Positions 4,171-31,982 of a stretch of DNA of 31,982 nt are shown piece by piece. A program made the position numbers and the translations under genes. This DNA is from a virus. The notes under the pieces were generated by a model, which saw nothing but the letters and a program-made list of their open reading frames with translations, was not told where the DNA came from and ran no database searches. Positions within the stretch are counted from its first letter, which is position 1. Every line of letters begins with the position of its first letter. The stretch lies in the IMG/VR virus record IMGVR_UViG_3300021513_000090. The stretch is one strand, 5' to 3'.

Positions 4171-4484
4171 AATCACTTTTCATAGGTCGGTGGCAACCCT
4201 TCCATAGGGGTCATAAAGTCTTGGTGGACACAGTGTTGAACGAAGGCAAGGATGTGGTTATTGCTATCAGGGATACCGAGATATCGTCTGATAACCCCTA
4301 CACGGTCGATGAGAGGATAGATATGATAAAGTCGGTGTACGGAGACCGAGTTGAAATAATCGTTGTTCCGGATATTGGCGAGGTGTGTTACGGTAGGAAG
4401 GTGGGGTACAAAATAAGAGAGATACGGCTGCCAGAGGATATCGAGCGCATATCAGGCACAGAGATACGGAGACAGCAATCATGA
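4167..4484 (+). CDS. Small HxGH-family nucleotidyltransferase (cytidyltransferase-like; candidate minimal sulfate adenylyltransferase)
   Basis: FIGRWQPFHRGH (HIGH motif) and C-terminal ISGTEIR; ATGA overlaps with both neighbours. Confidence 0.75.
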   Translation: MKSLFIGRWQPFHRGHKVLVDTVLNEGKDVVIAIRDTEISSDNPYTVDERIDMIKSVYGDRVEIIVVPDIGEVCYGRKVGYKIREIRLPEDIERISGTEIRRQQS

Positions 4485-4849
4485 TACTATGGCTCACTGG
4501 GAACAGTGGATCCGGCAAGACCACCCTTGCACAACACCTGAAGACAAAAGATGCAATAATCCTCGATGGTGATGAGATGCGAAAGTCGATCTCCGAGAGC
4601 GCCGGTTTCTCGAGAGAAGACCGATGGGAACACAACTTACGGGTGGCTCGACTAGCTAAAGTTTTGGAGGACCAGGGATTCGTGGTGATCGTTTCTCTTA
4701 TCTGTCCATACGAGGAGCTTAGGATGAAAATAAAAGAGATGATTGGGTGTAAGTTTATTTACCTGAAAGGAGGCAAAGTACATGATGACTATCCTTACGA
4801 AGTACCGAAATCCCCTGATATCATTCTCGAAAAGTGGAGTTTTGATTAA
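4481..4849 (+). CDS. cysC: Adenylylsulfate (APS) kinase, short form
   Basis: ILWLTGNSGSGKTTLA P-loop, LDGDEMRK, GFSREDRWEHNLRVARLAKVL and VIVSLICPY, typical of CysC. Confidence 0.85.
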   Translation: MILWLTGNSGSGKTTLAQHLKTKDAIILDGDEMRKSISESAGFSREDRWEHNLRVARLAKVLEDQGFVVIVSLICPYEELRMKIKEMIGCKFIYLKGGKVHDDYPYEVPKSPDIILEKWSFD

Positions 4850-6177: not shown

Positions 6178-6945
6178 TCAACACCAGTGAACGATCACAT
6201 CAAAAATACCATCAAGATATTCGAGATCGCTAACGAAATGATCGATCGCTTCGTCCTCATCCCACACCTCATATTGTTTTACAGATAGGCTGTCCGGTGA
6301 AGTCGCGCCCGGTGGTCGGTAGACAAACAGGACGACATTTTTAGCATCCACCGCTCCTTTATACGGTTCGATTTGTTGTTTGATTTCCCATCTCATCACG
6401 CTATCGGGACGTAGTGCGTATCCTACGATCACTTTACTCCCACCGACCAGTCCACCAATGAAATTGATTTTTCTATTGCCGATGAAGACGTTCATTATAT
6501 CGGCGCGTGATGGTGTGGGCTGTCCGTATGGATGTGTGTGAAACGATCCGATGTGCACACCTTTTGCTTTCTCGAAACATTCCACATGCTCGATTTGTAT
6601 GCCGCTGCCGGTCTCAGCTTCGGCGCAATCGGTCAGCTCGTACCCCCGCGGTCCGACATCACATACTGTGCAACCATACTCAGTAAACCACTTCTCAGCT
6701 TCTGCGAGATGGATCAACTTCATCCGTTTTTCTTCTATGCTGGAATCGACCGACACAATATGGCTCTCAATGTCGCGGGTGTATCGCCCACAGTGTTGGT
6801 CAACCGCCTGGCACAACTCCTCCTGTAGTTCGGCGAGAACACCGAGCAGCAATTCCCTAGGCGTGATCTTCTCCCCACCAACTTTCGATCTGCTGACCGC
6901 TTTTACAGCGGCTTCGAGTTCGCGTGGCATGTAGTCGAATGTCAT
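6178..6945 (-). CDS. JAB/MPN+ (JAMM) metalloprotease-like protein, paralog 1
   Basis: EYGCTVC plus GSFHTHPYGQPTPSRAD (HxH-x7-S-x2-D). Start placed at ATG 6945 (AGGT RBS; avoids overlap with the upstream gene). Confidence 0.75.
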   Translation of the reverse strand: MTFDYMPRELEAAVKAVSRSKVGGEKITPRELLLGVLAELQEELCQAVDQHCGRYTRDIESHIVSVDSSIEEKRMKLIHLAEAEKWFTEYGCTVCDVGPRGYELTDCAEAETGSGIQIEHVECFEKAKGVHIGSFHTHPYGQPTPSRADIMNVFIGNRKINFIGGLVGGSKVIVGYALRPDSVMRWEIKQQIEPYKGAVDAKNVVLFVYRPPGATSPDSLSVKQYEVWDEDEAIDHFVSDLEYLDGIFDVIVHWC

Positions 6946-6947
6946 TT

Positions 6948-6995
6948 TTAATACCTGTTGACTACCCCTGGATATGGGTCGATTTTTTGTTCCAT
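6948..6995 (-). other. 15-codon mini-ORF MEQKIDPYPGVVNRY, homologous to an internal segment of JAB paralog 2
   Basis: AGGTGA RBS; DNA 6964-7008 aligns to about 12655-12700 with few mismatches. Confidence 0.6.
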
Positions 6996-7003
6996 TTCGT
7001 GTT

Positions 7004-7387
7004 TCACCTGGCTGTGTTGGCTGTGTTACAAAATCTAACGAACCTATCAAGCGCCCATCTCATAAGGTTTTTCTTCGTTAGATCGATATATGTAACACCT
7101 ACGAACGATTCCCACATCTCGTCGATCCGGTTGAAGAGTTGATCCGGTACGTCCACGACGACATCAACAATCTTCTCATCACTAACATCTTCTGTGTTGA
7201 TGGGTACAACAATCGTCGTGTCCAGCTGCTTTATGGTTTGATCATCCAGCTGTGCGAAACGTTCCAGTGCCCATAGAACGAGTTTTCGATTCGATATTGG
7301 AATATTCACACTACCGATCAGATCGTTCCATTTAACACGTATACTGTCTAATACTGGTTTAGGTACACTTACTATTATTTTCGACAT
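7004..7387 (-). CDS. Tandem double ribbon-helix-helix DNA-binding protein
   Basis: Two internal repeats: IIVSVPKPVLDSIRVKW...RKLVLWALERF and VVVDVPDQLFNRIDEMW...KNLMRWALDRF. Confidence 0.6.
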   Translation of the reverse strand: MSKIIVSVPKPVLDSIRVKWNDLIGSVNIPISNRKLVLWALERFAQLDDQTIKQLDTTIVVPINTEDVSDEKIVDVVVDVPDQLFNRIDEMWESFVGVTYIDLTKKNLMRWALDRFVRFCNTANTAR

Positions 7388-7475: not shown

Positions 7476-7936
7476 GTGGTACATCCCATGAGGCTTCATA
7501 CCGATACAAGATTCAGACATAGTGGTACATCCCATGAGGCTTCATACCGATACATCCCATGAGGCTTCATACCGATACAAGATTCAGACATAGTGGTACA
7601 TCCCATGAGGCTTCATACCGATACAAGATTCAGACACAGTGGTACACACGAAATTCAATGTGGCGAACATGAGAGCCGGGGCGATACAAGATTCAGACAC
7701 AGTGGTACACACGAAATTCAATGTGGCTAACACGAGGCGCCATACCGATACAAGATTCAGACATAGTGGTACATCCCATGAGGCGTCATACCGATACAAG
7801 ATTCAGACACAGTGGTACATCCCATGAGGCGTCATACCGATACAAGATTCAGACACAGTGGTACATCCCATGAGGCGCCATACCGATACATCCCATGAGG
7901 CTTCATACCGATACAAGATTCAGACACAGTGGTACA
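7476..7936. repeat. Modular direct-repeat array (iteron- or centromere-like)
   Basis: Eight copies of 28-bp CGATACAAGATTCAGACAYAGTGGTACA at 7502, 7573, 7619, 7682, 7746, 7792, 7838, 7909, separated by 43/18/35/36/18/18/43-bp linkers that are themselves repeated. Confidence 0.95.
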
Positions 7937-7952
7937 AAACCAATGAAGGTGA

Positions 7953-10900
7953 TCAATCGATTGTGTACTTGTCACCCACTTTTTTAATAGGTTTTTCGCG
8001 CAATCGGAACATGTTTATGTTATCGTCGATCACCTGTTCGACAATTTCGGTGGTGAGCCCATCTGGCACGTCCATGCCTTTTAGCTCCAATAAGACGTGC
8101 ATTGGGCTGAATTCTCTAAGCCCCTTACTGTAACCGAGGTAGAAAATACGTGACCTGATGGCATTAACAAGTTTCTGTGATTCTGTATCCGAAAAATCAC
8201 CGACACGAACAACACGCTTTTTTCTAGCTGTTGTGTTTACTTCGTTTTCATCTCTTTTCCTATTAAATTCAACAAATAAGGGAAATGCGTGTTGTTCGTG
8301 TAAAGAAGAAATGTCCTTTTTCTCGGTACCAGACAAGTTGTCTCTTACCTTTATGAATCTCCATCCCCTCATTTTTTTACCATTTTCATCAAAAAGATTC
8401 TCTGTGTAGTCCAATCCAGGTTTTGACATCATCTGCGACGTAAAAACCCTTCTTGTTTGTATTTTAGCCGTAGTGTTTCCATCTTCACAATATTTTAGAT
8501 ACCGTTTATATATTTCATTTCCACCGATCTGATCATCCTCGTCTGTTGTTACGGTGACCATGTCCATAAAAAACGATTCAATTGAATCCGCACCTTTGAT
8601 GTACATTCTCTCCACTTTTTTATAATCATCTGTGGTAAGGATGGTTCTATCTTCTTTGATGCGCTGCACACCATCGAGAGCATGATTCAGTATCCCAGAA
8701 AGTTCTTCTTTCGTGGTTAGCTTTTTAAACATGCCACGATCTTCTTTTTTACCAATGAACGTCTGTTTAAATTCCAAAAGCACTACCCGCCTCCAGAACG
8801 CGAGCGTTTTGTCCCTCGTTTGTGGCAGTTCATTCGCCGCATATATCAGTTTAGCGTGATTTACAAACGTAAACGGCTGTCCGTATTTCTTTTGAGCCTG
8901 TATTATATCTGTTCCTGACGATAGTGACTTCAGGTGACCTGTCTGGTACAATTCCTTGCTCGATAGATCACCAACCACATTAGCCAGCTTTCCATACAAC
9001 TCAGCTGGTAGGAACGGATCATCGAGCCGCTGTAGTTCTACTCCTGATATGTTTTGGTGCCCTAAAAATTCTTTTAAGACATCTAACAACGTGCCCTTTC
9101 CGTTTGCACCTGAGCCGTGAAACATAAACCATTTCTGGATGTGATAATCACGTATCAAACAATAACCGAACAGATCGATGACCCTGATCCGGTCATCCTC
9201 ATCTGGTAGCACTTCTGATAAAAAATTATCAAACACAGGACATTTTGCCCCTGGATCATATCTAATCGATACCTGTGTGGTTGAATAATAATCCGGTGTA
9301 TGTGGCATGAGTTTACGTGTGGCGATATTAAGGAGTCCGTTCCCGATGTTGATGATGTTCTCGTCCGCATCGATCTCGTCACGGTCCACATAAGTCAGTC
9401 GCTGGATGTGTCCAATTACCTCAGCGACAGAGTTCCTTGTGACTTTGACCCCTTCCATGATGTTCTCAAGCATCCTCTTGATGTAAACCTCTCCTCTGGG
9501 CTTGTACACGCCACCATCATAGTAAAAAACCTCTTCCGTGTCGGTTAGGGTGATGAAACGTTCACCAGATTCGTTGATAACCCAGCGTGCGAACGCATTC
9601 GGGTCAAACCCGATCACCTTGCCTGTGGTCTCATTGTAAGTTATAAAACTGTCCCCATCCACGTCCCATTTCTTCTTTTTTAGTGTTTTAACCGCATTGA
9701 TTATTTCACTGACAACGTGATCATCGAGTTGGTAATGCCGTGCCACTGCCGACTGTATGAACGCCATCCGTTCGACCGGTTCCATCGCAGCCAGTTCTTT
9801 GACAACAAATGATCTCGCTGCCCGTGCGCTGTCGGTAACGCTGGTCGGGACCTCCTGCTGTGTGAGTTTCATGTCCCAGACCGACATACCTTCGTCACAC
9901 AATTGTTTAAATTCCTCGAAAGTATGTGTGCGAAGATACTCGGCGATGTCCATCTTCTCATCGCCGTTTTCAACCGGCAGCCTAACGACCTTTGTGTTTA
10001 CTCCGTTAACTGTGAGATACTCGGCGGTCTGTATTGATCCCTTGATGCCAGCAGCGTCGGTGTCGTTGCATACAAACACCTCCTTGAACCGCTTCGCGAT
10101 CTTGAGGAGCCTCATACAGTCCGCTTTTCTGAACTTGGTCGTGACCGGGCTGATGCACGCCATCCCTCCGTTCAGCACGGCTATACAATCGGTAACCCCC
10201 TCCGTGATAACAAGCCGGTCATTCACGCCCCTGGTCGAGTCCATACCATACAGGTAACGGTTCTCAACCTGTGGACTGATGTAATCGTTTTTGGGATCGT
10301 TTGTTTTGAGTTTTTTGTATTTCCCTGACTCGTATTTGTTTTTAGGAGTCCATTTTGACTGCCTTGCGATAAAATACACAACATGACCGTTGTACCAGTA
10401 TGGGAATATGATCCTCCCGATAAACTGGTCCATCCATCCTCGTGACGTGCGTCTCACGAGACCGGATTTTTCAACGAGTGTATGATCGAAGACCTTCACC
10501 ATTTCTCTGTATAACGCATCCCCTGTGGTCTTGGATATGCCGATCTTCAGCTCGTCTATAGTATCATCCGTGATACCCCATTTGTCCCGTATAGCGGCTC
10601 TATGGACGTCCAGCAGGTTACTGTGATAATACTCTGCAGCAGCCGTGTAGAGTGTCCGTATCTCCTGCAGTTCAATCCGTGCCTCTATGTCGCCTCTATC
10701 GATCTCGATACCCGCCTTATGTGCAGCGATCTCCAGCACCTGTTGGAACTGTGTCCTGATATCGAGATCGTTCGCATCAGCGATCCAGTCCAGCACGTCC
10801 CCGCCGGCGCCACAGTTCCAACACTTCCAGACCTGCTTCTTCTTGTTAACATTCAGGCTGCGCCCAGACTTGCTCTCGTGTTTTGGATGCTTTCCTACCC

Positions 10901-12471: not shown

Positions 12472-13200
12472 TTAACACCACTGCACCACAATGCTGAAAG
12501 AACGCTTTAAATATTCTATCTGCTTATAGAATTGTCGGCGCTGTGTAGCGTCATCATATACAGGAATTACCCCCACATGTGCCGACACATTGGCTCCTTG
12601 TGAATCGGATGGTACCTTCCACATGCAAACAGCGCCTTTTGCTCCCTCCCAAATATCCCCCGGATATGGATCGATCTTTTGTTCCATTTTGTACTTCACC
12701 AAACTGCTATCGAATGATCCGTAACCAACTATCACGTCTCTATCCCCGACTTTACCACCTATGAAATCAACTATGCTCTCACCACGAAGTTGATTATTGA
12801 TATCGGCTGCAGATGGGAGGGGCAGCATGAACGGATGTGTGTGGTATGATCCGATTGGATTGCCGCCTGCCTCAATACATGTGGTCTTTGAGATGGTGAC
12901 ATGTGTACCTGAAGACTCCTGTCTGCGACAGTCTGTTAGTTTCGCACCGTTCTCACCCAGATAGCAGACTGTGCAACCGTACTCGGAAAACCATTTATTC
13001 ACTTCTTCAAAAGGCATTATTTTTTGGTATGTTCCCTCTCGTTTTTTCACAATATCGATTACTGACTTGAGATCGACTACCCAATCCCGAATTTCCTCGT
13101 ACGCTGGAACATTGTCAGCGATCATCTGACACATCGGGTCTTCAAGTTCGTCCAGAATGCCGAGAAGAAGATTTTTCGGAGAAATCTCTTCCTCCGTCAT
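12472..13200 (-). CDS. JAB/MPN+ (JAMM) metalloprotease-like protein, paralog 2
   Basis: EYGCTVC; GSYHTHPFMLPLPSAAD; ATG 13200 overlaps the paralog 3 stop (TGATG). Confidence 0.75.
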   Translation of the reverse strand: MTEEEISPKNLLLGILDELEDPMCQMIADNVPAYEEIRDWVVDLKSVIDIVKKREGTYQKIMPFEEVNKWFSEYGCTVCYLGENGAKLTDCRRQESSGTHVTISKTTCIEAGGNPIGSYHTHPFMLPLPSAADINNQLRGESIVDFIGGKVGDRDVIVGYGSFDSSLVKYKMEQKIDPYPGDIWEGAKGAVCMWKVPSDSQGANVSAHVGVIPVYDDATQRRQFYKQIEYLKRSFSIVVQWC

Positions 13201-14030
13201 CAGCACCACCGAATTATAACATCAAAAACATTCGATAGAGCAGTTACCTGTTCAGCGAACCCCACACGCTGCACATCTTCAGAATACACCGAAAGTTCAT
13301 CCACCTCGCCTTCGCTCTCGTAATTATCCCAAAACACGTCAGGTATCTCTCCTGACTCCAGCTCCTCCCTGAATTCTGCGCGTTCGTCTTCGTCATACAT
13401 ATCAGAAGAGAAAATGTAGTCGAAGTCTTCCAGTAGGTCTGATGCCATCGGACCCGGATTCTCCCGGTAGAATCTGATGACACCGATGGGCTCTCCTGGC
13501 ATATCTCCCCACACTGTCCCACCAGGTCTAAAAATAGACATTGCTGCAAGGTGTCCGTATCGCATCTCGCTCGTCGGTCGCGGTGTGTAACCAACAATCA
13601 CATCCCTGCCACCGACCTTACCCCCGATAAAATCATAAGATGTCTTCCAGTTGAAGCCGCATAAGAGATCATCGTGACTCGGTATCGGCAGTCCAGTTGG
13701 ATGTGTGTGGAAAGTCCCAACGCGTCTCCCCCCCTGGTGCACACAATCAATGATATCGATGGTACATCCAGCAGCGGTGTGTCCAGTATCGCAATCGGTT
13801 AGTCGATATGCCTCACCGATCTTACATATCGTGCACCCGTGCTCTGCGAGATATTTCTCTGCCTCAAACATATCCATCATTCGATAAGACTGTGCTTCAT
13901 CATCCATGTCTGGAGTAATAATCCAATCTTCGATCTCTTTATTCGGTACACAATGCCGCTCGATTCGATCACACATAGCATCCTTCATGGTGTTGAGGAT
14001 GTGTTCGAGTATCTCCAGCCGTGAAACCAT
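13200..14030 (-). CDS. JAB/MPN+ (JAMM) metalloprotease-like protein, paralog 3, with acidic insertion
   Basis: EHGCTIC; GTFHTHPTGLPIPSHDD; start ATG 14030 (GTG 14048 also possible). Confidence 0.75.
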   Translation of the reverse strand: MVSRLEILEHILNTMKDAMCDRIERHCVPNKEIEDWIITPDMDDEAQSYRMMDMFEAEKYLAEHGCTICKIGEAYRLTDCDTGHTAAGCTIDIIDCVHQGGRRVGTFHTHPTGLPIPSHDDLLCGFNWKTSYDFIGGKVGGRDVIVGYTPRPTSEMRYGHLAAMSIFRPGGTVWGDMPGEPIGVIRFYRENPGPMASDLLEDFDYIFSSDMYDEDERAEFREELESGEIPDVFWDNYESEGEVDELSVYSEDVQRVGFAEQVTALSNVFDVIIRWC

Positions 14031-14070
14031 GTGTAACCATTTCTGCACCTTCTGGTAAAAACTTTCCTGA

Positions 14071-19334: not shown

Positions 19335-19409
19335 AGCGGGGTAGGGCAGCCAGGTTTCCCCGTCGGGCTCATAACTCGAAGATCGATGGTTCAAATCCAT
19401 CCCCCGCTA
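19335..19409 (+). tRNA. tRNA-Met(CAT), initiator type
   Basis: Acceptor AGCGGGG/CCCCGCT with A1-U72; anticodon arm TCGGG-CTCATAA-CTCGA; T arm GATGG-TTCAAAT-CCATC; no encoded CCA. Confidence 0.92.
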
Positions 19410-21533: not shown

Positions 21534-22862
21534 TTACTGTAATAACTCTTTTACGGTTTTCAATTCGATATTGATACCGTATTTAGATTTGGCGTCTTCC
21601 GCCTTCTTTATCGCTCCTGATGTGAAACCGAATGCTATGATTATGCCTCCCATCCGGTTGTCGTCCTGGATCACTGTCTGAAATTCCCTTACGACCTTCA
21701 CACCCACGCGGTCACTACGTTTAACCTGTATCGGGTCACCAACAATCGTCCACCCGTCTATACCGCCATCGGCGGATAGTTTTCGATTCATCCTACCCTG
21801 AACTGCCTTGACCGCCCACGCCTGGAACAGTGCCGGTTTTATATCCCGTAACTTCGCTTCGGTCATCAACTCCACTTCATCGATGATCTCTGGTCTGCTG
21901 CCCAATTTATCCAGTCGCTGTTGCATCACCACACAGGCAGGCATTTCTGCATCGATACCAATCCATCGCCTGCCGAGTCGTTGTGCAACCGCAAGGGCAG
22001 TGCCGCATCCACAGAACGGATCAAGGATTAGATCACCCGGCTTGCTGCTGGCTTTTATTATGCGCTCCAACAGGGCTTCTGGCTTCTGTGTGGGGTATCC
22101 CAGGCGCTCTCTTGATGTTGATGCCATTGTTGGAATATCCCAAACGTCGGTTTCTGGCGCACCCTTCTCATTAACGTAACTTTTACCATAATATACCGTT
22201 CCGTCTCTCCGTTTTCGTTTTATGAGGGCATACTGTCCTTTTTCATCACGTTTGTTGTACCTCTTCATCTCGGTATCTTTGTATGGTCTGTAGATCGGAT
22301 TGAACGTGTATTTTGATGATTTACTGTATAATAATATTGTATCGTGTTTACGCGGCAGTCCACTTTTCCTAACAGTTGCCCTAGCTCCATAATGCCATAT
22401 TATCTCATTCCTAAAGTTCCCGTATCCAAATATCTCATCCATCGCCACCTTTACATAATGAACCGCGTGCCAGTCCAGATGCACGTAGATACTGCCGGTT
22501 GGTTTGAGCACCCGGTAACATTCTTCCAGTCGAACCTTGAGCCATCCAACATAAGCCTCGATGTCGTTCATCCGAACATCTCTTGCCTTATGCACAGATT
22601 CGCCGCAATGCGGGCAAAAGAGATATCCCTCCATGAAGTCTTTCCCGCACTCTGGATTCCCACAAACCTTCTTGTAGAATTTGGTGTCCTCGAATGACCG
22701 TATGGTGTTTTTGTTATCGCCGTCCCATATCAGATCATAGTTTTTCCCTGAAAAGAATGGTGGATCAAGGTAGATCAGATCGACCGATTCATCAGGGATG
22801 TACTGCCGCATCTTATCCCGGCAGTCGCCACAGATTATCGAATTCGTTATCAACGCTTGCAT
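21534..22862 (-). CDS. N4C/N6A DNA methyltransferase (beta class) with inserted Zn ribbon and C-terminal Mrr-like nuclease domain
   Basis: LIYLDPPF, YPTQKPEALLERII, ILDPFCGCGT; inserted CGNPEC...CPHC; C-terminal DGGIDG...IQVKR. Confidence 0.88.
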   Translation of the reverse strand: MQALITNSIICGDCRDKMRQYIPDESVDLIYLDPPFFSGKNYDLIWDGDNKNTIRSFEDTKFYKKVCGNPECGKDFMEGYLFCPHCGESVHKARDVRMNDIEAYVGWLKVRLEECYRVLKPTGSIYVHLDWHAVHYVKVAMDEIFGYGNFRNEIIWHYGARATVRKSGLPRKHDTILLYSKSSKYTFNPIYRPYKDTEMKRYNKRDEKGQYALIKRKRRDGTVYYGKSYVNEKGAPETDVWDIPTMASTSRERLGYPTQKPEALLERIIKASSKPGDLILDPFCGCGTALAVAQRLGRRWIGIDAEMPACVVMQQRLDKLGSRPEIIDEVELMTEAKLRDIKPALFQAWAVKAVQGRMNRKLSADGGIDGWTIVGDPIQVKRSDRVGVKVVREFQTVIQDDNRMGGIIIAFGFTSGAIKKAEDAKSKYGINIELKTVKELLQ

Positions 22863-22933
22863 AGTTTTGTGACCTCTTTTAGTTCTTTACCCCCGTTAGC
22901 ACGTAACTAATGGGGTTTGTAAAAAATAAAGAG
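22863..22933 (-). promoter_or_regulatory. Leader hairpin, divergent copy, upstream of methyltransferase
   Basis: TTTTAC-AAA-CCCCATTAG loop CTAACGGGG-GTAAAG followed by GAGGTC RBS. Confidence 0.7.
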
Positions 22934-22943
22934 TATCGGGGGT

Positions 22944-23267
22944 TCATTCATCGTCCTCGATAGTCTTCCTGTACACTTCTTTCGCCTTCTCGAATGCCTC
23001 TTCAATCTCGATCATTCCCATGTTCTCGGATTCCAACATATCCTGCAGGAATGCGATCTTAAGCGACATTTGGCTCTTGTAGGTATCCGGTGTCCTGTGC
23101 ACCACAGCCGGGTGTATCTCATACCCACCCGATAGAAAACCTCTCACAAACTCATCGGTGTTTCTACCTTCAAGTGCGTCTGTGATCAGTTTAATATCGT
23201 CTGTGGGTAGTTTTATCATAAGTTCCCGTGCCCGCTGGTAAACTGTATCGTGTTCCATTGTTATCAC
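22944..23267 (-). CDS. Hypothetical protein
   Basis: Coupled to the upstream gene (GTGA overlap). Confidence 0.6.
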   Translation of the reverse strand: MITMEHDTVYQRARELMIKLPTDDIKLITDALEGRNTDEFVRGFLSGGYEIHPAVVHRTPDTYKSQMSLKIAFLQDMLESENMGMIEIEEAFEKAKEVYRKTIEDDE

Positions 23268-23653
23268 AGATGTCCTGCGGCATATCTCACCGCCACTGAT
23301 ACGACCATTGACCAGTCATCCAGTCCGCTCTCAACCCCTTTTTTGACTGCGTGCATCTCCTCTGGGGTCAGTTCCCTGTTGAGTATATCTTTCGCTATGA
23401 TTTGTGCGTCTTCTTCGGTGATGATGAACAGTGGTTCAGCCTTCCCATCCCAATCGCCCACCTGTGCTCGGTATACAGCCATGAAAGCGGCTTTTTCAGG
23501 GAGTCCATTGACCACATTCTTGATAAACTCTCTCTGCTCCGCCGTGAGCCTGTTCAGGATGTCAGCCGATTGCTTATAATCATCCCCTATCTTATCCATC
23601 GTCTTTACGTCCTCTGCATTGCGCAGTTCTCCGATGTTTAATTCCTGGTTCAT
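23264..23653 (-). CDS. Hypothetical protein (MNQEL-type N-terminus)
   Basis: Directly after a leader repeat; N-terminus shared with 24802..25224. Confidence 0.7.
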   Translation of the reverse strand: MNQELNIGELRNAEDVKTMDKIGDDYKQSADILNRLTAEQREFIKNVVNGLPEKAAFMAVYRAQVGDWDGKAEPLFIITEEDAQIIAKDILNRELTPEEMHAVKKGVESGLDDWSMVVSVAVRYAAGHL

Positions 23654-23729
23654 GTTTACGACCTCTTTATGGTTTCACCCCTGCGATACGGTTTTAGCCG
23701 CTCACAGGGTTTATGAAAAAATAAAGAAA
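23651..23729 (-). repeat. 79-bp dispersed leader repeat, copy 1
   Basis: Identical to 27641-27719 and 1 mismatch to 25222-25300. Confidence 0.95.
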
Positions 23730-23743
23730 TTATGAGATTTTAA

Positions 23744-24124
23744 CTAAAACCACTTTAGTTTAGCAGCCTCCATAGCATGTTTCGCAACATGTAGGGTGAT
23801 CTCACCATCTGGCGAACTTCCGTTCGTTGTATACTCTTTCCATATCTCTGCTGCGATCATGTGCCGCGTTGCAGTTGGAAGACTGTCGAACTGCATCCAT
23901 CTCATCCCTTCACCACTGTAATGGCGAATACCTCCTATATCTTTGCCCCATAGGTAATCAGCCAGTTGCAGTTTTGTAAACACCGCCCCAACATGGTATC
24001 TCTCCGAGTTGCCGAGTTTCGCATACAAATAATTCACCAGTGCGGTTTTACTGCTGGCGGATATTCTGTGAAACGTTTCTTCACCGGTTTTTTTCGATAC
24101 CAGTTGATATGCGAACATGGTCAT
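23744..24124 (-). CDS. Hypothetical protein
   Basis: AGGAG RBS, 126 aa. Confidence 0.6.
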   Translation of the reverse strand: MTMFAYQLVSKKTGEETFHRISASSKTALVNYLYAKLGNSERYHVGAVFTKLQLADYLWGKDIGGIRHYSGEGMRWMQFDSLPTATRHMIAAEIWKEYTTNGSSPDGEITLHVAKHAMEAAKLKWF

Positions 24125-24163
24125 ATCTCCTTCGCCTCGTTTTCTCTGGTGGGTTGTCCCGAT

Positions 24164-24673
24164 TCATTCGGTCTCATCATCCTCCCCTGTCTCATCATAG
24201 AACCCATTGATAGCCTCGTCGACCGCCGCCGCAACCTTATCGATCGCTGGTGTGGTCATGTCGTCCAGATACTCCAGTGCACACCCCATAGAACAGAACG
24301 TGTTTACAACCCCTGTTTTTGTGCCTGTCCACATCCGGATCGCATCAGTGTAGATGATTCCGCCACACCACACACATCGCGGCATTAGATCGACCTGTAC
24401 CGCCGCCCATACCCGTAACCCATGTGCATCCATTGGATGGTATTCTGTCGCGTTACCCACTGCCATAGTGATGTTCACGTCCTTCCTGTCGCGTTGCCAT
24501 AGGTTACGTATCAGTATCGCTGTCTCTACTGCAGCCTGTGGGTCAATCCAAAGATCGCCCTCGCCTTTATACTCTGGTTGTAGCATATCGCCGTTTATTA
24601 CGTCCTTCTCATTAGTAATCTCAACGATATGGCTCGCATCCATCCGTGCCTGCCTTGTTATGTAGTATCCCAT
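24164..24673 (-). CDS. Hypothetical protein with CxxC...FCSxxC zinc finger
   Basis: GAGGT RBS; RCVWCGG...TFCSMGC. Confidence 0.65.
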   Translation of the reverse strand: MGYYITRQARMDASHIVEITNEKDVINGDMLQPEYKGEGDLWIDPQAAVETAILIRNLWQRDRKDVNITMAVGNATEYHPMDAHGLRVWAAVQVDLMPRCVWCGGIIYTDAIRMWTGTKTGVVNTFCSMGCALEYLDDMTTPAIDKVAAAVDEAINGFYDETGEDDETE

Positions 24674-24704
24674 AATATTACCTCATAAATAAATGGATAG
24701 AGTG

Positions 24705-24797
24705 TTAAACACCCATCCAAAGTTCTTTCGATATCTCTTTACCGTCTATGGTGATTCTCTGTGTGTCCGGGTTATCTAACTCATTCATCCGGTTCAT
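24705..24797 (-). pseudogene. 30-codon ORF equal to the C-terminal fragment of 26493..27011
   Basis: DNPDTQRITIDGKEISKELWMGV* versus GNTDTQKITIDGKEIPTELWRGV*. Confidence 0.75.
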
Positions 24798-24801
24798 CTC
24801 A

Positions 24802-25224
24802 TCACTTCTCTCTGTACTCGATCAACGCCGCGTTGAAATCGTCGAGATACATATCCAGTAAGTCGAGTTCCTCCGCCCTGTCAAGTGCCGCCACACACTG
24901 GATGAAGATCATCCGATCTTTAGGGTTATCAAATTTATCCAGTGACCGGCTGTAGAAGTCCTTAACCGCCTCTACCCGCGGCTGTGGTGCAACCCAACTT
25001 GCCATCTCACCGCGTGCCTTGATACTTTCCATGAGATTTACAAACTCACGGTTAAAGTAATCAAGTGAACATCCGTTAACGACCATCTCAACGCGTGCGA
25101 TATGGTTCACTATCACCCTGCGGGTGTATTGTAGTTCTTTCAGATACCCTTCTATCGTATCGAACGGTTTCTGCCTTACGTCCTCCGCCTTGAACAGTGC
25201 TTTAATGCTTAATTCCTGGTTCAT
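24802..25224 (-). CDS. Hypothetical protein (MNQEL-type N-terminus)
   Basis: Directly after leader repeat copy 2. Confidence 0.7.
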   Translation of the reverse strand: MNQELSIKALFKAEDVRQKPFDTIEGYLKELQYTRRVIVNHIARVEMVVNGCSLDYFNREFVNLMESIKARGEMASWVAPQPRVEAVKDFYSRSLDKFDNPKDRMIFIQCVAALDRAEELDLLDMYLDDFNAALIEYREK

Positions 25225-25300
25225 GTTTACGACCTCTTTATGATTTCACCCCTGCGATACGGTTTTAGCCGCTCACAGGGTTTATGAAAAAATAAAGAAA
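25222..25300 (-). repeat. 79-bp dispersed leader repeat, copy 2
   Basis: One substitution relative to copies 1 and 3. Confidence 0.95.
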
Positions 25301-25486
25301 TCAGAGAACGTCCTTGACTAACTCCCTGAATTTCTCTGTTGGTATACTGAAAGACCTTGATACCACTGTTTTATCATTTACTTCTGTCTCTATCTCGATA
25401 AAGACATAATCGCCCGCCTGGTTCTTAAACACGTTAATCGTGTTCATCACAACACCGGTTTCTCCTCTGCTGTATGTTCCTGTCAT
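25301..25486 (-). CDS. Small hypothetical protein
   Basis: GAGGT RBS; has a deleted paralog at 27684..27803. Confidence 0.65.
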   Translation of the reverse strand: MTGTYSRGETGVVMNTINVFKNQAGDYVFIEIETEVNDKTVVSRSFSIPTEKFRELVKDVL

Positions 25487-25524
25487 TGTTTACCTCATTG
25501 AATAAAGAAATTATGAGAGGGTTC

Positions 25525-26463
25525 TCACCCTCTCCGGTTGTGGGTAAACACCCACCCTGTACCTTCATTGCGACCATCTGCTATCTGCCTGGCTATCTCA
25601 TGGAGTTTCGTTACAATCTCACCCCATTGATCGGCTTCAAGTTCAACCGTCACCGCCCATTCTTTCTTTAAGGCTTTCTCCAGTTCGATTATACGCTTTT
25701 TTACGTCGTCGATGTATTTACCGACCATTGAAGGCAACTTTAGGCGTGCTTCACAGTCGTAATCATAGAACTGTTTTATATTTGGCATACTGTACCCGAT
25801 CCCGCACCGTGCATCTATGTACACACTACCGAGTGGATACCCGCCCCATGTGCCGGCATTCTCTGCAAGGTTTACCCATTGCTTCAATACAAACAGTTCA
25901 TCAGCCCCGCCGGTTTCGATTGGCTCAACGGTGTGTTCGCTTATGTATTCGCTCCATATCTCATCTATGTTCCCGCGTCCCTCTGTAACCTCAAGTCCTA
26001 ACTCTCCGTTGGGATCATTCCTTTTAACGCTGTCTTCTGCCTCATCTTCATCACTGAAGGTTTCGACCTCATTACCGTCGGCATCGATCACGATCCAGGA
26101 TGGTTCAAACATGTCACATAACGCCTCATATTGGCTTGTGACCTCCGCCCATACGTCGTTAGAACGGCTATACGCTGCACATATCCGTATCGCATCTTCT
26201 ATGTCGCTGTTGTACCACAAACCATCATCGGTTTCCTTCTCATTGCAGTTTGCGATTATGTACGCGGCATCTTCAAGAGTGCACCCCTGATCTGTAACCT
26301 CTGTTGTGAAGTATTCCCGGATGTCTCCATATCCGCTTTCATCGAGATATAGATCATCAATGCATTCCTCACCGTCGATTATTGCCTTCTTTATATCTGG
26401 TTCGATCTCTGATATAAACTCGAACGCTGCCTTTTTAATGTCTTTAGCATATTCATATTCCAT
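25525..26463 (-). CDS. Highly acidic protein with Ocr-like N-terminal region (candidate DNA mimic)
   Basis: GAGGTTGT RBS before ATG 26463; about a quarter D/E in the first 120 aa; ETDDGLW...NDVW segment resembles T7 Ocr as recalled. Confidence 0.5.
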   Translation of the reverse strand: MEYEYAKDIKKAAFEFISEIEPDIKKAIIDGEECIDDLYLDESGYGDIREYFTTEVTDQGCTLEDAAYIIANCNEKETDDGLWYNSDIEDAIRICAAYSRSNDVWAEVTSQYEALCDMFEPSWIVIDADGNEVETFSDEDEAEDSVKRNDPNGELGLEVTEGRGNIDEIWSEYISEHTVEPIETGGADELFVLKQWVNLAENAGTWGGYPLGSVYIDARCGIGYSMPNIKQFYDYDCEARLKLPSMVGKYIDDVKKRIIELEKALKKEWAVTVELEADQWGEIVTKLHEIARQIADGRNEGTGWVFTHNRRG

Positions 26464-26492
26464 TTTTACAACCTCTTTAAAGAAAAAAGGGG

Positions 26493-27011
26493 TTAAACCC
26501 CCCTCCATAGTTCTGTTGGTATCTCTTTGCCGTCTATGGTGATTTTCTGTGTATCGGTGTTACCCGCCCATGAGTAAAACCACTTAACGACCTCTGGCAG
26601 TGTCTCCGGTGTGTAATCCAGTGACATACATCCGCGTGGATACCGGTCATGACACTGAAAGAAACCGCCCTTAAACCCCTTATCGTTGTAATGATCAAGG
26701 GTAAAATGCGCTCTCCAGTTCCAGATAGTGCCTTCACGTTCTCCAATGAATTCGCCTGATACAACCCGCATGAACGTTCTTACTTTTTCAAGTATCGCGC
26801 TCATACTGTTGTTTTCCTGTGCCCACCCGATATAAACGCTCGAACCCGCTCCAAACGCTTTAGAGATATCGTTTTTCACGATATCAACAATAACAGGATG
26901 TGCATCGATGAATTCAATGACTTTAACGTCGTGCTCATCCTGTGAATAGATATCGGGGTATTCACTGCTCTGATATGTCTTTACTTCAACTGTGCGAGAA
27001 GTTGTTTCCAT
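26493..27011 (-). CDS. Hypothetical protein
   Basis: GGAGGTCGTAAAC-ATG at 27011 (the track start 27083 lies in the promoter). Confidence 0.7.
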   Translation of the reverse strand: METTSRTVEVKTYQSSEYPDIYSQDEHDVKVIEFIDAHPVIVDIVKNDISKAFGAGSSVYIGWAQENNSMSAILEKVRTFMRVVSGEFIGEREGTIWNWRAHFTLDHYNDKGFKGGFFQCHDRYPRGCMSLDYTPETLPEVVKWFYSWAGNTDTQKITIDGKEIPTELWRGV

Positions 27012-27029
27012 GTTTACGACCTCCATATA

Positions 27030-27074
27030 ATACTTATATGTATACGTATAAGTATCACCACCCACCTTATAAAT
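27030..27074 (-). promoter_or_regulatory. TATA box with downstream palindromic operator-like site
   Basis: ATACTTATA-N8-TATAAGTAT inverted repeat; TACGTATAAGTAT shared with 29407-29419. Confidence 0.5.
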
Positions 27075-27105
27075 GTTCCGCATGGTGATACCTATACATA
27101 CCCAT

Positions 27106-27273
27106 TTATCTGTACATCATCCCGGTATCGCTGCCTGCACCATCATCAATAGCCAACAAGTATGTACCATCATCTGATAGTCTTATCTCTGCATCCAGGG
27201 CGTCCGCATCCGTCCACAGTGATTTAAAAAATATCACCGTGAATCTGATCTTATCGTATATTCTCATCCGCAT
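27106..27273 (-). CDS. Small hypothetical protein
   Basis: GAGGTC RBS before ATG 27273. Confidence 0.45.
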   Translation of the reverse strand: MRMRIYDKIRFTVIFFKSLWTDADALDAEIRLSDDGTYLLAIDDGAGSDTGMMYR

Positions 27274-27281
27274 GTGTGACC

Positions 27282-27464
27282 TCATAGATGATCGAGTTTT
27301 CCGGACTCCAGGCATGATATGATTGTACGCACCTCGTTTATGCGTATATTCATTGCAATCTCTTGTTTGGTGTCATGCCTGCGCTGTGCGTCGTCTATGT
27401 TCTGCTCCTGTGCTCGAACCCTTCTTTCCAGGGCTTCTATGATCTTCTGATATCTCTGACTCAT
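27282..27464 (-). CDS. Small coiled-coil hypothetical protein
   Basis: ATGA-coupled to the upstream gene. Confidence 0.6.
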   Translation of the reverse strand: MSQRYQKIIEALERRVRAQEQNIDDAQRRHDTKQEIAMNIRINEVRTIISCLESGKLDHL

Positions 27465-27643
27465 GGTTCTCTCCAGATGATGCTCCCGCCCAATGCTTCA
27501 ACTATTTCCGTTACTTCTGCTATCATCCGGGCTGCCTGTAAATCTACCCGGTGCCTGAACCCCTGCCTTCTCAACCGCTCTACCGCTTTGTTAAGTGCGG
27601 ATTCTGGTATTTGGGTGTTTATCGATGTTCCTGGGTTTTCCAT
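27461..27643 (-). CDS. Small hypothetical protein
   Basis: Directly after leader repeat copy 3. Confidence 0.65.
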   Translation of the reverse strand: MENPGTSINTQIPESALNKAVERLRRQGFRHRVDLQAARMIAEVTEIVEALGGSIIWREP

Positions 27644-27719
27644 GTTTACGACCTCTTTATGGTTTCACCCCTGCGATACGGTTTTAGCCGCTCACAGGGT
27701 TTATGAAAAAATAAAGAAA
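27641..27719 (-). repeat. 79-bp dispersed leader repeat, copy 3
   Basis: Identical to copy 1. Confidence 0.95.
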
Positions 27720-27803
27720 CCAGAGAACGCCCTTAAATAGTTCCCTGGATTTTTCTGTTGGTATAACGATACCGGTTTCGCCTCTGCTGTATGTTCCTGC
27801 CAT
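27684..27803 (-). pseudogene. Internally deleted paralog of 25301..25486
   Basis: MAGTYSRGETGIV/IPTEKSRELFKGVL versus MTGTYSRGETGVV.../IPTEKFRELVKDVL; stop TGA changed to TGG, so it reads into the leader repeat. Confidence 0.75.
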
Positions 27804-27811
27804 TGTTTGCC

Positions 27812-28024
27812 TCATTGGTCTACCGTATCCGTTTGATGTGGTTTATTCCAATTTTCCACTATTATTACATGGTACGTCCGGTTGTTAACGGTTATCATTC
27901 TACCCATGTTCAGATGTGGATATATACCCTGCAGATTGCTTATCGCAGCCGATAAAACTTTATCACGCCTCGCTCTCCGCTGATTTATCCGCTCACATGT
28001 TTTATTCCAATGTTCTGATGTCAT
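27812..28024 (-). CDS. Small hypothetical protein
   Basis: ATG 28024 just after the upstream gene end. Confidence 0.5.
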   Translation of the reverse strand: MTSEHWNKTCERINQRRARRDKVLSAAISNLQGIYPHLNMGRMITVNNRTYHVIIVENWNKPHQTDTVDQ

Positions 28025-28047
28025 TGTTTGCCACACCGTCCAAAAGG

Positions 28048-29007
28048 TCACACGGATTCGGTGACCCCAAACGTAACCTCTTTTCTGCAGTCCATGCACA
28101 TAACGCGGTTGTTATCCTGGTCATACCACCAGTCTATGGGTTTCGATGGTGCACAACCATCAAAATACCAACTATACCCGGCATCATCTGATGACCACAT
28201 ACCGCACCCGCACACTGCTGTTATATCCGTCTGTGCCATACTGAAGTAGTCCGGGTGATTCAAACTGAATATCTGTGGCACAGTGTAGCCGCCTCTCACG
28301 TCACACCCGCCATGTATCTGAAGGATAATATAGGGCTCACCGTCCACTTCAAATATGCCATACTGCAGCACCTGGGAGATTATGTTATCATAGTTGTACG
28401 TATTCACGATACCACCGCACGCGTATCCGTCTATATCGACCTCGTCACGCTCTAAAAACTCTTCCATGTCCTGAAGGTACGACCTATTGCCTGATGTCTC
28501 AACGATATTCTTTAATATCGCATTTAACCGCTCGGATTCGTCTGTTATGTCCAGGAACAGGGTTAAGTATCGGTATACATCGTACGATATGGTAACCTCT
28601 CCATCTCTACCGTGACCATATACGGTAACATGGCACGCGTCCCGTTTATCCCATTCATCCATAGGGATATGTCGGTTGCGCTCCCATGCTCTACCGTACG
28701 CACCGCCCGAATCCAGGATATCGCACCCGGTGTTTTCTGTTAACATCCTGATTATCCGTGCTTTTACCGGATCAGTTTCTGTTATCTCTGGTTGTGGGTT
28801 CTTTCGTTCGCTCTGTGCGCATTCTGCATCAGATAGTACGCTTGCAATCCCTCTAACCAGTGCATCCGTGCAATCGGTTGTTTCGCCTGTGGTTGTTGGT
28901 TCTACTTCTGTATCCAATAATCCAGGCGAACCGTTCGATTTAAACCGCTCATCGACGTAAGCCATCGCCCGGCACCATTCGTTTATGTCCTGTTCTATGT
29001 CTACCAT
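28048..29007 (-). CDS. Conserved-looking viral hypothetical protein
   Basis: MLTENTGxxILDSGGAYGRAWERN, NTYNY and LQIHGGCDVRGGYT motifs recalled from uncharacterised phage/archaeal-virus proteins; follows a leader hairpin. Confidence 0.7.
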   Translation of the reverse strand: MVDIEQDINEWCRAMAYVDERFKSNGSPGLLDTEVEPTTTGETTDCTDALVRGIASVLSDAECAQSERKNPQPEITETDPVKARIIRMLTENTGCDILDSGGAYGRAWERNRHIPMDEWDKRDACHVTVYGHGRDGEVTISYDVYRYLTLFLDITDESERLNAILKNIVETSGNRSYLQDMEEFLERDEVDIDGYACGGIVNTYNYDNIISQVLQYGIFEVDGEPYIILQIHGGCDVRGGYTVPQIFSLNHPDYFSMAQTDITAVCGCGMWSSDDAGYSWYFDGCAPSKPIDWWYDQDNNRVMCMDCRKEVTFGVTESV

Positions 29008-29060
29008 TTTTATGACCTCTTTACCCCCATAAGCCTGAACTTATGGGGTTTATAAAGAAA
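29008..29060 (-). promoter_or_regulatory. Leader hairpin, divergent copy
   Basis: CTTTAT-AAA-CCCCATAAG loop CTTATGGGG-GTAAAG followed by AGGTC RBS. Confidence 0.7.
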
Positions 29061-29081
29061 AAGAGGGCTGTTAACCCCTCT

Positions 29082-29207
29082 TTAATCACCATGCCTTAAA
29101 GGTATAATATCGATACCCAAATACATGAATATGCCTTTTGGTGTCATATACGGTATCGGGTAATCGTATATCTCTGCAGGCGTCTCATTCATCATCATGG
29201 TCACCAT
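29082..29207 (-). CDS. Small hypothetical protein (not in ORF track)
   Basis: 41-codon ORF overlapping the upstream stop. Confidence 0.35.
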   Translation of the reverse strand: MVTMMMNETPAEIYDYPIPYMTPKGIFMYLGIDIIPLRHGD

Positions 29208-29371
29208 TCAACAGTTACCTTGATCTGTTCTGGTACGTTGCCGGTGATAGCCTTCTTTTGTAGGTATATCGACCCCATAATAGGGCTGTCGTCCTCTGCA
29301 CCATATCGCATGGTGTTTTTGGTCTCTTTATTGCGGATAAATACCGCCTCTCTCTTATCGTTCTTTATCAT
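29201..29371 (-). CDS. Small hypothetical viral protein, first gene of the leftward block (not in ORF track)
   Basis: GAGGTGG RBS; MIKNDKREAVFIRNKETKNTMRY...GSIYLQKKAI...PEQIKVTVEW*, 56 aa. Confidence 0.65.
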   Translation of the reverse strand: MIKNDKREAVFIRNKETKNTMRYGAEDDSPIMGSIYLQKKAITGNVPEQIKVTVEW

Positions 29372-30040
29372 GGTTTATTCCACCTCTTTATATATACGTA
29401 TGCAGTTACGTATAAGTATAAGTATCGGCTTTATCCGATATAAAGGTATCGCTAGTTAAAAAATTTCACATAAAAAAATTTATAAAAACATTTAAGATAT
29501 AAAGCAACAAAAACTCAAAAATCGGTACAAAAGTGTGTGTAGTAAGCCCATACTTAACCAACTAAGTTCGTGTATGATACCCTATTTTTTGTTTGTATTC
29601 GTGAGCGTTTTTAAAATTTTTTTATAAATTTTTTAAATAAAAACGGAGAAGGCTTGTTTTTCCAAAAGGAGGCTTTAGGGGGCTTCTTTTAGCAAAAGGA
29701 GGCTTTAGAAGGCTTCTTTTTGGAAATAAGGCTTTAGAGCGCTTATTTCTGAGAATAGAGCACTATTATACCCCCTTTTTTAGGTTACCTAAAATCGCCA
29801 ATATTGCGAGTTAGGTTACCCATTTAGGTAACCTAAACAGCAAAAACGCTATCTATAGGCTGGTTACCCACATCCATGCTGGTTACGCAGGTTACCCGCC
29901 TGGCAACCCAGATGTGCATATTTGACGGTGTGGGTTGAAACATGGTTACCTCAATATCTCCCCGAATCCGCCAGATGTGCTAATATGATAGAAGGATATT
30001 GATATTTTTACCTGCCTGCCAGTGAGCGATCGGTTCGATG
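29372..30040. other. Non-coding AT-rich control region with inverted repeat, 30-bp tandem repeats and clustered GGTWACC boxes
   Basis: 16-bp IR at 29473-29488 / 29619-29634; about 30-bp tandem units 29651-29750; GGTWACC at 29783, 29814, 29827, 29862, 29890, 29944. Confidence 0.8.
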
Positions 30041-30280
30041 CGTCTATCGGGGTGACTTCAGCACGATTTCCACGATGTGTCCATTAGAGCCCCCACATCG
30101 CACAAACTCGATTGCCTGTGTTGGCACATCAATTGCATCGAGAACTATCGCCTGTCCCCACAAAAACAGTTGACCCCTGGAGGGGCGATGCCGGAGATAT
30201 ACACTGTTGTGCCAACCGTCTCTCGGCATCGTACGTGTGTCCAAAGTGCAGATATCATCTGCACCACATTCTACATAAAC

Positions 30281-31486
30281 CTATTCTCTCTCTCGTGCGG
30301 CTGCCTTAAGTTCTGCGAGTTCCTGCCGCAATGTCCTCAATTCTTCCATCACGTCAGCCCCCACCGGTTGTTCGAGTATCTGCACGTCTCTCTCGATCTC
30401 ACCGTATCTTTTCGTGTATTCTTTCGGTAGGTATATCCGGTATTCCTTCGCGATCTTATAGGCTTCTTCAGGTCGCATCACCTCAACGTAATGCATCAGC
30501 GGCATCGATGCCGACTCCCAGCCCCCGAACTTAACGAGTGTCGGCAGCCCGACATCTCCCACCATCGCGTACACAACGCTAGCCCATGTGTGCCGGATCG
30601 ACCACGAGAACTTCGGTAACCCTGCCCTGTTCTTGATAGCCCTCCCCTCGTCGCGGACAGCAGCGATGCTTGCAGGGATGATCCTGTCCCTGGGTCCCAG
30701 CCCCATCCGCTCACACCACTCCTTGATGTCGTTGTAGAGATTCATGTCGATGTATATTTCCGACGGAGGCATCTTCTTCTTGAGCTCTTCCTCGACTTCC
30801 GACTTGTGCTCTTCGACCGCCTCGATCGCGGGGATGACGCAGTACCTGTACCCGAACAGTGGGGAAACCTCCTCACGCCGGCACTCGATATCGCCACATC
30901 TGAATTCGAGAGCGTGTGAATACCGGAGCCCGGTCTGCAAGAGGAATCTCGCGAGGATGTTGTACTGTGTCTTCACATCATACGCGGTCATTCCCTTCGG
31001 GGCTCGGCTGATGCGGGAAATCGCATCAAAGATTCGGTGCAGCTCATCGAGGTTGTAGATCGGCGGGCGGCTCTTCACCCGGCTCTTCTTCATTTTGATG
31101 CCCTTGAACGGGTTGTATACCGTGTACCTCTCCTCCAGAAGCCACCGCCCAAATGCAGATAGTGTCGCGTTGATCTGTGTCTGGACTGATTTGCTGTCTG
31201 AAAGACTTCGGGAAAACCGTTCTCCATCCCCTCTGCGGATGCTATCCAGATCACGGAGATCTAGGACGTCCAACCCCTTCTGCTTGGCATACCACCTGAA
31301 AAACCGCGGCAGATACTTGTATATCCAATCCCTGAGACGCTTTGCGCTATACTCGTTGTACGCATAGTCGGAAAGGTACTCATCGACCACGATGCTCTCC
31401 AATTCCGGTGTAAGCGGCAGGGGATTATCATCAAGCCGTTTCATTAATTTATCGAGTGCAACCTCTTTCGGTATTCTATCAGCCAT
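30281..31486 (-). CDS. Tyrosine recombinase / integrase (XerC/D-like fold)
   Basis: SAM-like N-terminal region ending NPF; LLQTGLRYSHAL (Arg I); SIRH (Arg II); GGW; catalytic Tyr in MHYV; start ATG 31486. Confidence 0.88.
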   Translation of the reverse strand: MADRIPKEVALDKLMKRLDDNPLPLTPELESIVVDEYLSDYAYNEYSAKRLRDWIYKYLPRFFRWYAKQKGLDVLDLRDLDSIRRGDGERFSRSLSDSKSVQTQINATLSAFGRWLLEERYTVYNPFKGIKMKKSRVKSRPPIYNLDELHRIFDAISRISRAPKGMTAYDVKTQYNILARFLLQTGLRYSHALEFRCGDIECRREEVSPLFGYRYCVIPAIEAVEEHKSEVEEELKKKMPPSEIYIDMNLYNDIKEWCERMGLGPRDRIIPASIAAVRDEGRAIKNRAGLPKFSWSIRHTWASVVYAMVGDVGLPTLVKFGGWESASMPLMHYVEVMRPEEAYKIAKEYRIYLPKEYTKRYGEIERDVQILEQPVGADVMEELRTLRQELAELKAAARERE

Positions 31487-31788: not shown

Positions 31789-31980
31789 GTTGCAGCGCTC
31801 TTTGCTCGTTGCATCGCTTATCACCCGAAACTCATTCCGCGATCGTACCTGTTGCCTAACATACCTCATCGTTGCATCGCTCATTGCTCCGCAACTTTGC
31901 TCTGCGGCGATGTCCTCCTGGCGTTCCTCCACGTACGTTGCATCGCTTATCGCTCGTTGCATCGCTTATCACCCGAAACT
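31789..31980. repeat. Cluster of short direct repeats (GTTGCATCGCTTATC core)
   Basis: 29-bp GCTCGTTGCATCGCTTATCACCCGAAACT at 31804 and 31952; core also at about 31870 and 31936, degenerate at 31789. Confidence 0.8.
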
Positions 31981-31982
31981 TG

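Follow-up and report, generated by a model that had tools for sequence, protein, structure and literature searches.

A selected and uncatalogued A-bulge hairpin motif in one lineage of mobile elements associated with anaerobic methanotrophic archaea

The early RNA of phage T7 is split by RNase III at intercistronic hairpins. In the IMG/VR virus record IMGVR_UViG_3300021513_000090, a stretch of 31,982 nt that we call the window and on which hairpin coordinates are given, an array of genes carries five hairpin leaders, all on the minus strand. These hairpins are a real, selected and uncatalogued RNA motif of one lineage of mobile elements associated with anaerobic methanotrophic (ANME) archaea. 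As at the T7 sites, the hairpins are repeated between cistrons, have an asymmetric bulge or loop, and lie upstream of ribosome sites in what would be an early anti-restriction polycistron. Unlike the T7 case, the host is archaeal, no RNase III was found in the nearest genome (78% complete), the bulge consists of three nucleotides, all A, in the 5' arm, and cleavage is predicted.

Several other described systems share features with the leaders. The promoter early stem-loops (PeSLs) of T4-type phages are conserved composite intergenic units of ~80-100 bp in hyperplastic regions, each joining a terminator-like stem, a possible promoter and a ribosome site, and they act as recombination joints for small unknown genes, as happens here (PMC2839356, PMC4122927). 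The leaders, too, are conserved between genes of a hyperplastic region and coincide with the borders of gene exchange. However, PeSLs have strong consensus promoters and simple terminator stems, whereas the leaders have no transcription factor B recognition element (BRE), a TATA-like box that is sometimes broken, and a conserved bulge. In the inhibitory hairpin that holds a T4 late promoter at gene e and I-TevI (PMC3014915), a TATA-like box also lies in the 5' arm and the hairpin reaches the ribosome site; here, by contrast, occlusion is weak, the motif is a repeated family and promoter activity is doubtful. Bulge-helix-bulge (BHB) substrates of the tRNA-splicing endonuclease EndA, including the HVO_1309 intron in a 5' untranslated region (PMC7714728), resemble the leaders in having a three-purine bulge 3' of a helix, a closing inner helix and a place in an mRNA leader, but the leaders have a single bulge, an outer helix of 5-12 bp instead of 4, and a host enzyme of the strict alpha2 type. 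A full BHB was considered and rejected: no second 3-nt bulge follows a 4-bp helix on the opposite strand, and the alternative register leaves 0-1 closing pairs in 19 of 23 copies. Frpo/ssi hairpins (PMC11541004) similarly precede genes on one strand, among them those for a methyltransferase and a possible DNA mimic, but the fold here favors the sense strand, and the stretches examined, ~37 kb of the contig and 39 kb of a relative, showed no conjugation machinery. The motif is not a member of the attC, BHB or Frpo families.

Five leaders with a common fold

A sequence-only reading had described five minus-strand leaders, each composed of a U-tract, an outer stem, an unpaired AAA and an inner stem. 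All five are present at those positions with that layout, and each folds as RNA into two stems, outer and inner, separated on the 5' arm by a bulge of three A's:

29008-29067, minus strand: A-bulge hairpin leader, short class, upstream of the 319-amino-acid (aa) gene; bulge 29051-29049
27644-27718, minus strand: A-bulge hairpin leader, long class, upstream of a 60-aa gene; bulge 27702-27700
25225-25299, minus strand: A-bulge hairpin leader, long class, upstream of a 140-aa gene; bulge 25283-25281
23654-23728, minus strand: A-bulge hairpin leader, long class, upstream of a 129-aa gene; bulge 23712-23710
22865-22934, minus strand: A-bulge hairpin leader, short class, upstream of the methyltransferase gene; bulge 22918-22916

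Against dinucleotide shuffles, the leaders gave z values of -3.56, -5.23, -6.27, -3.32 and -5.03. The motif pattern occurs four times in the window versus 0.00 expected, and a covariance model recovered exactly the five leaders at 70-77 bits, with everything else at or below 23 bits. The three long copies, previously noted as near-identical 79-mers, have 79 nt in common; the copies at 23651 and 27641 match exactly and that at 25222 is one base off. With Rfam, only the tRNA of the window was matched, and 22700-29600 had no match at E<=2. Tandem G-A pairs next to the bulge, as in a kink-turn, were not found. Literature searches returned no description of the hairpin motif, in keeping with the proposal of an undescribed element, and its carrier is an archaeal mobile element.

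Selection on the fold is evident from a comparison set of 24 distinct copies (23 for some counts) drawn from the window and its relatives. Stem cells were paired in 97.3% of cases, versus ~50% in slid controls, and two-sided changes were found at 11 of 14 stem pairs. When mapped on the tree by parsimony, 14 changes were two-sided, 13 were one-sided but kept the pair, and 4 broke it. The earlier argument from compensatory changes thus held, and further covarying homologs exist in all but one of about 10 related loci. The sense strand contained 37 G-U cells versus 6 A-C cells, an excess indicating that the fold is intended for the mRNA-sense strand and hence for RNA. Even when folded as DNA, the sense strand was the better of the two in four of five tested copies. 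The fold is therefore under selection, with a strand preference toward sense.

Within this variable framework, a small core does not vary. The motif can be written Y-AAA-C/G-G, with three A's, a C-G pair inside the bulge and a G outside it; the outside pair is U-G in 23 copies and C-G in one. A structure-only search that left the bulge letters free returned AAA in all hits with a downstream ribosome site. The length inside the bulge ranges from 24 to 33 nt, falling into a short and a long class, and stem sequence varies as well, while bulge length, bulge letters and both closing pairs stay constant. A fixed bulge between variable stems points to a protein-recognition site and not to a plain stabilizing stem. 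In 18 of 23 copies the ribosome site lies 13-14 nt from the bulge-closing G. The U-tract is hidden in the stem, and some copies have none.

Predicted cleavage of early mRNA and rival explanations

Next to nothing is known about how viruses of methanogens and ANME archaea regulate genes after transcription, and archaeal mRNA-processing enzymes are mostly unassigned. By analogy, the leaders may work like known phage early-region leaders. Our preferred reading, to which we assign a probability of roughly 40%, is that each hairpin would be a protein-recognized cleavage site in an early polycistronic mRNA, comparable to the RNase III sites of T7. Transcription would start at two or three ordinary BRE-TATA promoters and presumably read through leaky U-tract terminators, as suggested by several genes in which a U-tract directly precedes the ribosome site and leaves no room for a promoter. 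A protein would recognize the fixed core, in which three unpaired A's are flanked by a U-G or C-G pair on the outside and by a C-G pair on the inside, and probably cut at or near the bulge. The cut would free the 5' arm, lower the cost of opening the ribosome site ~13 nt downstream, and give rise to separate mRNAs; in calculations, this cost was 3.9 kcal/mol with the 5' arm and 1.7 without it. In a Methanosarcinales archaeon, transcripts are known to be processed shortly before ribosome sites, with 44% of the intergenic sites in duplexes (PMC5499594), and a site cut by EndA is known in an mRNA 5' untranslated region (PMC7714728). The host tRNA-splicing endonuclease would fit the size and side of the bulge but not the full motif, and a viral or other host enzyme appears as likely. 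The more specific proposal, a dedicated single-bulge signal that is cut by host EndA acting on a half site or by a viral nuclease and that processes an early anti-defense transcript, is tentative and on the unlikely side. If true, archaea would have an equivalent of the RNase III processing of T7, and the motif would represent a new class of mRNA-processing signal in archaea.

A number of observations weigh against cleavage. The median cost of opening is 3.9 kcal/mol for intact leaders and 3.5 for a control set of 100 other genes from these elements, and any shortening of the 5' context reduces it anyway. Pairing toward the ribosome site, as originally described, does reach its first bases in many copies, but with opening no costlier than in controls the calculations do not support a strong translational block by the intact hairpin. 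There is no second bulge at 4 bp, and the outer helix spans 5-12 bp. The host EndA is a two-domain alpha2 enzyme of 352 aa, a type reported not to cut non-canonical introns (PMC5829648). An RNase III domain scored above the cut-off in one of five host-family genomes and not in the nearest one. Because the hairpin copies share descent, cell counts exceed the independent evidence, and events were therefore counted on the tree. Finally, a TATA box, present in 17 of 23 copies, could also account for the fixed A's.

This box, which occupies the 5' arm of most copies and was missed by the sequence-only reading, is the source of the main rival, an unlikely explanation in our estimate, in which a promoter resides in the hairpin by the logic of PeSLs or T4 gene e. 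The 5' arm would be the TATA box and transcription would start ~21-24 nt downstream, so that the short leader would be free of the 5' arm and well translated, while read-through RNA would fold and be attenuated or translated less. The A's would be kept as part of the box, and would be unpaired since a perfect repeat would create a second box. Agreeing with this, the box in those 17 distinct copies is a consensus one, one outer-stem variant keeps both box and pairing, and every copy comes right behind a terminator-like hairpin with its U-tract, a place at which re-initiation would be expected; a pyrimidine-purine step 20-23 nt past the box in every class is weak support, being frequent by chance, and precedents exist (PMC2839356, PMC3014915). 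However, a BRE is found in no copy, with 0-3 purines (mostly 0-1) at its place versus 3-4 in nine clear promoters. Moreover, the box is broken at position 3, 4 or 5 in three independent lineages that keep the pairing, two of them by compensatory change, and a consensus box is lacking in four of the five window copies. Occlusion of the ribosome site is weak, and this reading does not explain why the base preceding the bulge always faces a G. The motif would represent either a new signal for RNA processing or protein binding in archaea or a class of promoters without a BRE; being compact (~70 nt), well covarying and fixed in its core, it is directly testable in vitro or in Methanosarcina reporters.

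Binding without cleavage, which we regard as quite unlikely, would have a viral or host protein sit on the bulge and jointly repress or activate translation of the gene set; in a variant that shares this low estimate, the RNA would reload an antitermination state onto RNA polymerase after each U-tract. The MS2 operator, lambda nut and HK022 put provide analogies, as does RegA. The structural evidence is the same as for cleavage, and the constant distance to the ribosome site and the position of the 61-aa gene directly upstream of the long class in five loci agree with a binding role, as does the hiding of the U-tract in the stem, given that aCPSF1 binds U4 tracts (PMC8716108). On the other side, Pfam, PDB and homolog searches found no RNA-binding fold for the 61-aa or 56-aa proteins, some copies lack the U-tract, and the hairpin stands after, not before, the terminator-like signal. 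Far less plausible is a promoter or priming site in single-stranded DNA of the Frpo/ssi or N4 type, an analogy drawn earlier and now disfavored, despite the primase-helicase of the element and the resemblance of a same-strand array with a methyltransferase and an Ocr-like gene to plasmid leading regions (PMC11541004). On the template strand, the fixed U-G becomes an A-C mismatch in 23 of 24 copies, and the fold breaks a TATA duplex instead of rebuilding one. A promoter read from single-stranded DNA must fold on precisely that strand. In addition, a relaxase or conjugation gene was seen neither in ~37 kb of this contig nor in 39 kb of a relative. Least credible of all is an integron-like recombination site for the adjacent tyrosine recombinase, also raised at the outset. 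Such a site would fit the mosaic scars and the imperfect hairpins that recur between small genes, all on one strand, downstream of an integrase. Yet attC cores occur on neither strand, gene order is largely collinear, exchange borders vary with both arms moving together, and an array 99% identical lies behind a different, unrelated 599-aa integrase in relative L079. No IntI family match was found, and the integrases of relatives adjoin tRNA genes, as in prophage integration.

Gene exchange at the leaders and layout of the array

A role of the leaders as homology patches for the exchange and duplication of hairpin-plus-gene units is better shown than cleavage. Homology blocks among relatives often begin 7-20 nt 5' of the bulge and extend through the downstream gene, from which it follows that hairpin and gene move as a unit without a fixed crossover; the borders are spread over ~13 nt. 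In the window, 23605-23730 and 25176-25301 are 92% identical over 126 nt, reaching the first codons of the downstream genes. The resulting scars are two different genes that start with the same 126 nt, and a copy of the 61-aa gene, along with its hairpin, that carries a deletion. Relatives have 50-65% protein identity and, in place of the shuffled cassette order once envisaged, an order that is largely conserved, with insertions, losses and replacements. Three hairpin slots are conserved, namely before the 319-aa gene, after the 61-aa gene and before the methyltransferase gene, and some lineages have extra slots. The exchange is PeSL-like homologous recombination and not integron activity.

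Related observations were made in individual strains. The integrase swap lies exactly upstream of candidate promoter P1 (L079 844-3154 versus window 29471-31486). Tandem divergent methyltransferase-Mrr genes, each flanked by a hairpin, occur at L099 6803-9728 and L100 6814-9692; these two strains are 99.9% identical and differ by a block swap that ends at a hairpin. Short direct repeats in variable number lie upstream of the integrase (window 31789-31982; L076 3108-4478; L094 1-1050). In several strains they adjoin a TnpB/Cas12f-like gene, and in L094 an RRXRR-domain gene is near.

The array extends from just past the integrase to the replication genes, on one strand throughout. Its genes had been described as each driven by a leader; this applies to some, while others have a GC hairpin with a U-tract alone or a canonical BRE-TATA promoter, leaving the A-bulge leader on a minority. 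Other features of the array and its surroundings are as follows:

30281-31486, minus strand: tyrosine recombinase (phage-integrase type), upstream of the array
29437-29452, minus strand: canonical BRE-TATA promoter candidate P1 at the array head; matches the BRE-TATA of relatives
29416-29426, minus strand: 11-nt motif common to P1 and P2, just after P1
29201-29371, minus strand: 56-aa gene, first in the array, a position kept in relatives
29063-29080, minus strand: terminator-like GC hairpin, then U-tract, directly upstream of the first A-bulge hairpin
28048-29007, minus strand: 319-aa protein, phrog_11344, widespread in uncultured phages
27721-27747, minus strand: terminator-like hairpin at the end of the deleted 61-aa gene copy
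27684-27803, minus strand: copy of the 61-aa gene with an internal deletion, left as a scar of recombination
27066-27081, minus strand: canonical BRE-TATA promoter candidate P2, within the array and inside the inverted repeat 27035-27060 / 27083-27108
26489-26503, minus strand: GC hairpin and U-tract, no A-bulge hairpin, directly before a ribosome site
25525-26463, minus strand: 312-aa acidic protein with 49 homologs; further domains after a possible Ocr-like N-domain
25515-25534, minus strand: GC hairpin and U-tract, no A-bulge hairpin; its U-tract 25501-25515 is repeated at 23720-23734
25302-25328, minus strand: terminator-like hairpin that overlaps the 61-aa gene at its last codons
25301-25486, minus strand: 61-aa protein; a long-class hairpin directly follows its gene in the window and in L094, L096, L097 and L098
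24695-24718, minus strand: GC hairpin and U-tract, no A-bulge hairpin
21534-22862, minus strand: N6/N4 DNA methyltransferase with a fused Mrr-like domain; wherever relatives have the gene, a hairpin leads it

The motif marks the early accessory region, the likely seat of the anti-defense genes of these viruses. An anti-defense role, previously suggested for the array, is plausible for part of its genes, notably the methyltransferase-Mrr fusion and the 312-aa protein. In the latter, T7 Ocr was the best match for the N-domain region (residues 3-121; Z 5.4, root-mean-square deviation 3.5, 102 of 106 residues; Foldseek E 1.7), which may be taken as a lead only. For the 319-aa protein, matches to solved structures were all at or below Z 3.7. 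The 61-aa protein is a candidate partner of the hairpin. Pfam, PDB and homolog searches gave no support for a likeness between the 61-aa protein and the single-strand binders PC4/PurA, or between the 56-aa protein and AbrB. The long inverted repeat around P2 (window 27035-27108) has a z of -4.8 and does not recur at the matching promoter in relatives. The relatives' true promoters share a second conserved leader, a small hairpin of alternating purines and pyrimidines before the ribosome site (L094 12270-12348, L094 16735-16807, L107 2073, L098 12301).

The element, its host and other features

The window encodes a tyrosine integrase, the methyltransferase-Mrr fusion, RFC, MCM, PCNA, a primase-helicase, three JAB-domain proteins, Kelch and glycosyltransferase genes, and a tRNA-Met. 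The integrase, tRNA, primase-helicase, PCNA, RFC and MCM, along with tail-like JAB proteins, adhesin-like genes and a phage-wide family, make the element look like a temperate archaeal virus. The examined contigs, including 39 kb of a relative, yielded no capsid, portal or terminase gene. In the nearest genome (G001), a metagenome-assembled genome of the ANME-2 cluster, both ends of the region are present at 99-100%. The element is probably a virus of methane-consuming archaea from the deep sea.

The related loci come from separate metagenomes and were reached via homologs of two array proteins; all have the hairpin except L107, a partial contig. Pattern scans of IMG/VR and JGI metagenome contigs gave chance hits only, none of which folds like the motif or scores with the model, and protein-based locus searches of IMG/VR returned no relatives. 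Host chromosomes were without the motif, both by pattern in 392 genomes of the class and by model in 61 relatives and 151 genomes of the phylum; among these host-side genomes it occurred in G001 alone, which carries the element itself. As far as searched, the motif therefore appears confined to this element lineage.

Some further observations concern the host and integration. A stand-alone 150-aa gene with an RNase III domain is present in a genome of the host's genus (L114 1447-1899). The tRNA-Met(CAT) at window 19335-19409 is 92% identical to a host tRNA and is also found in relatives, some of which have tRNAs directly after the integrase. Just past the integrase stop, 146 bp (window 30156-30301) are 90% identical to G001 C128, another contig of the ANME-2 metagenome-assembled genome.

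Elsewhere in the window, long cysteine-rich tetrapeptide repeats with a 12-nt period (1-2030) run through the open reading frames at 3-752 and 754-3063. The second frame ends in a Kelch propeller, and the repeats may belong to a metal-binding or surface protein. Eight related repeats of 46-71 nt at the end of the primase-helicase gene (7476-7963) are a candidate iteron origin. The three JAB-domain paralogs (6178-7050, 12472-13209 and 13200-14048) are candidates for roles in tail assembly or counter-defense. By eye, small genes at 4167-4849 resemble a nucleotidyltransferase and an APS-kinase-like P-loop protein, and in L127 a region similar to this one contains NeuB and acetyltransferase genes.

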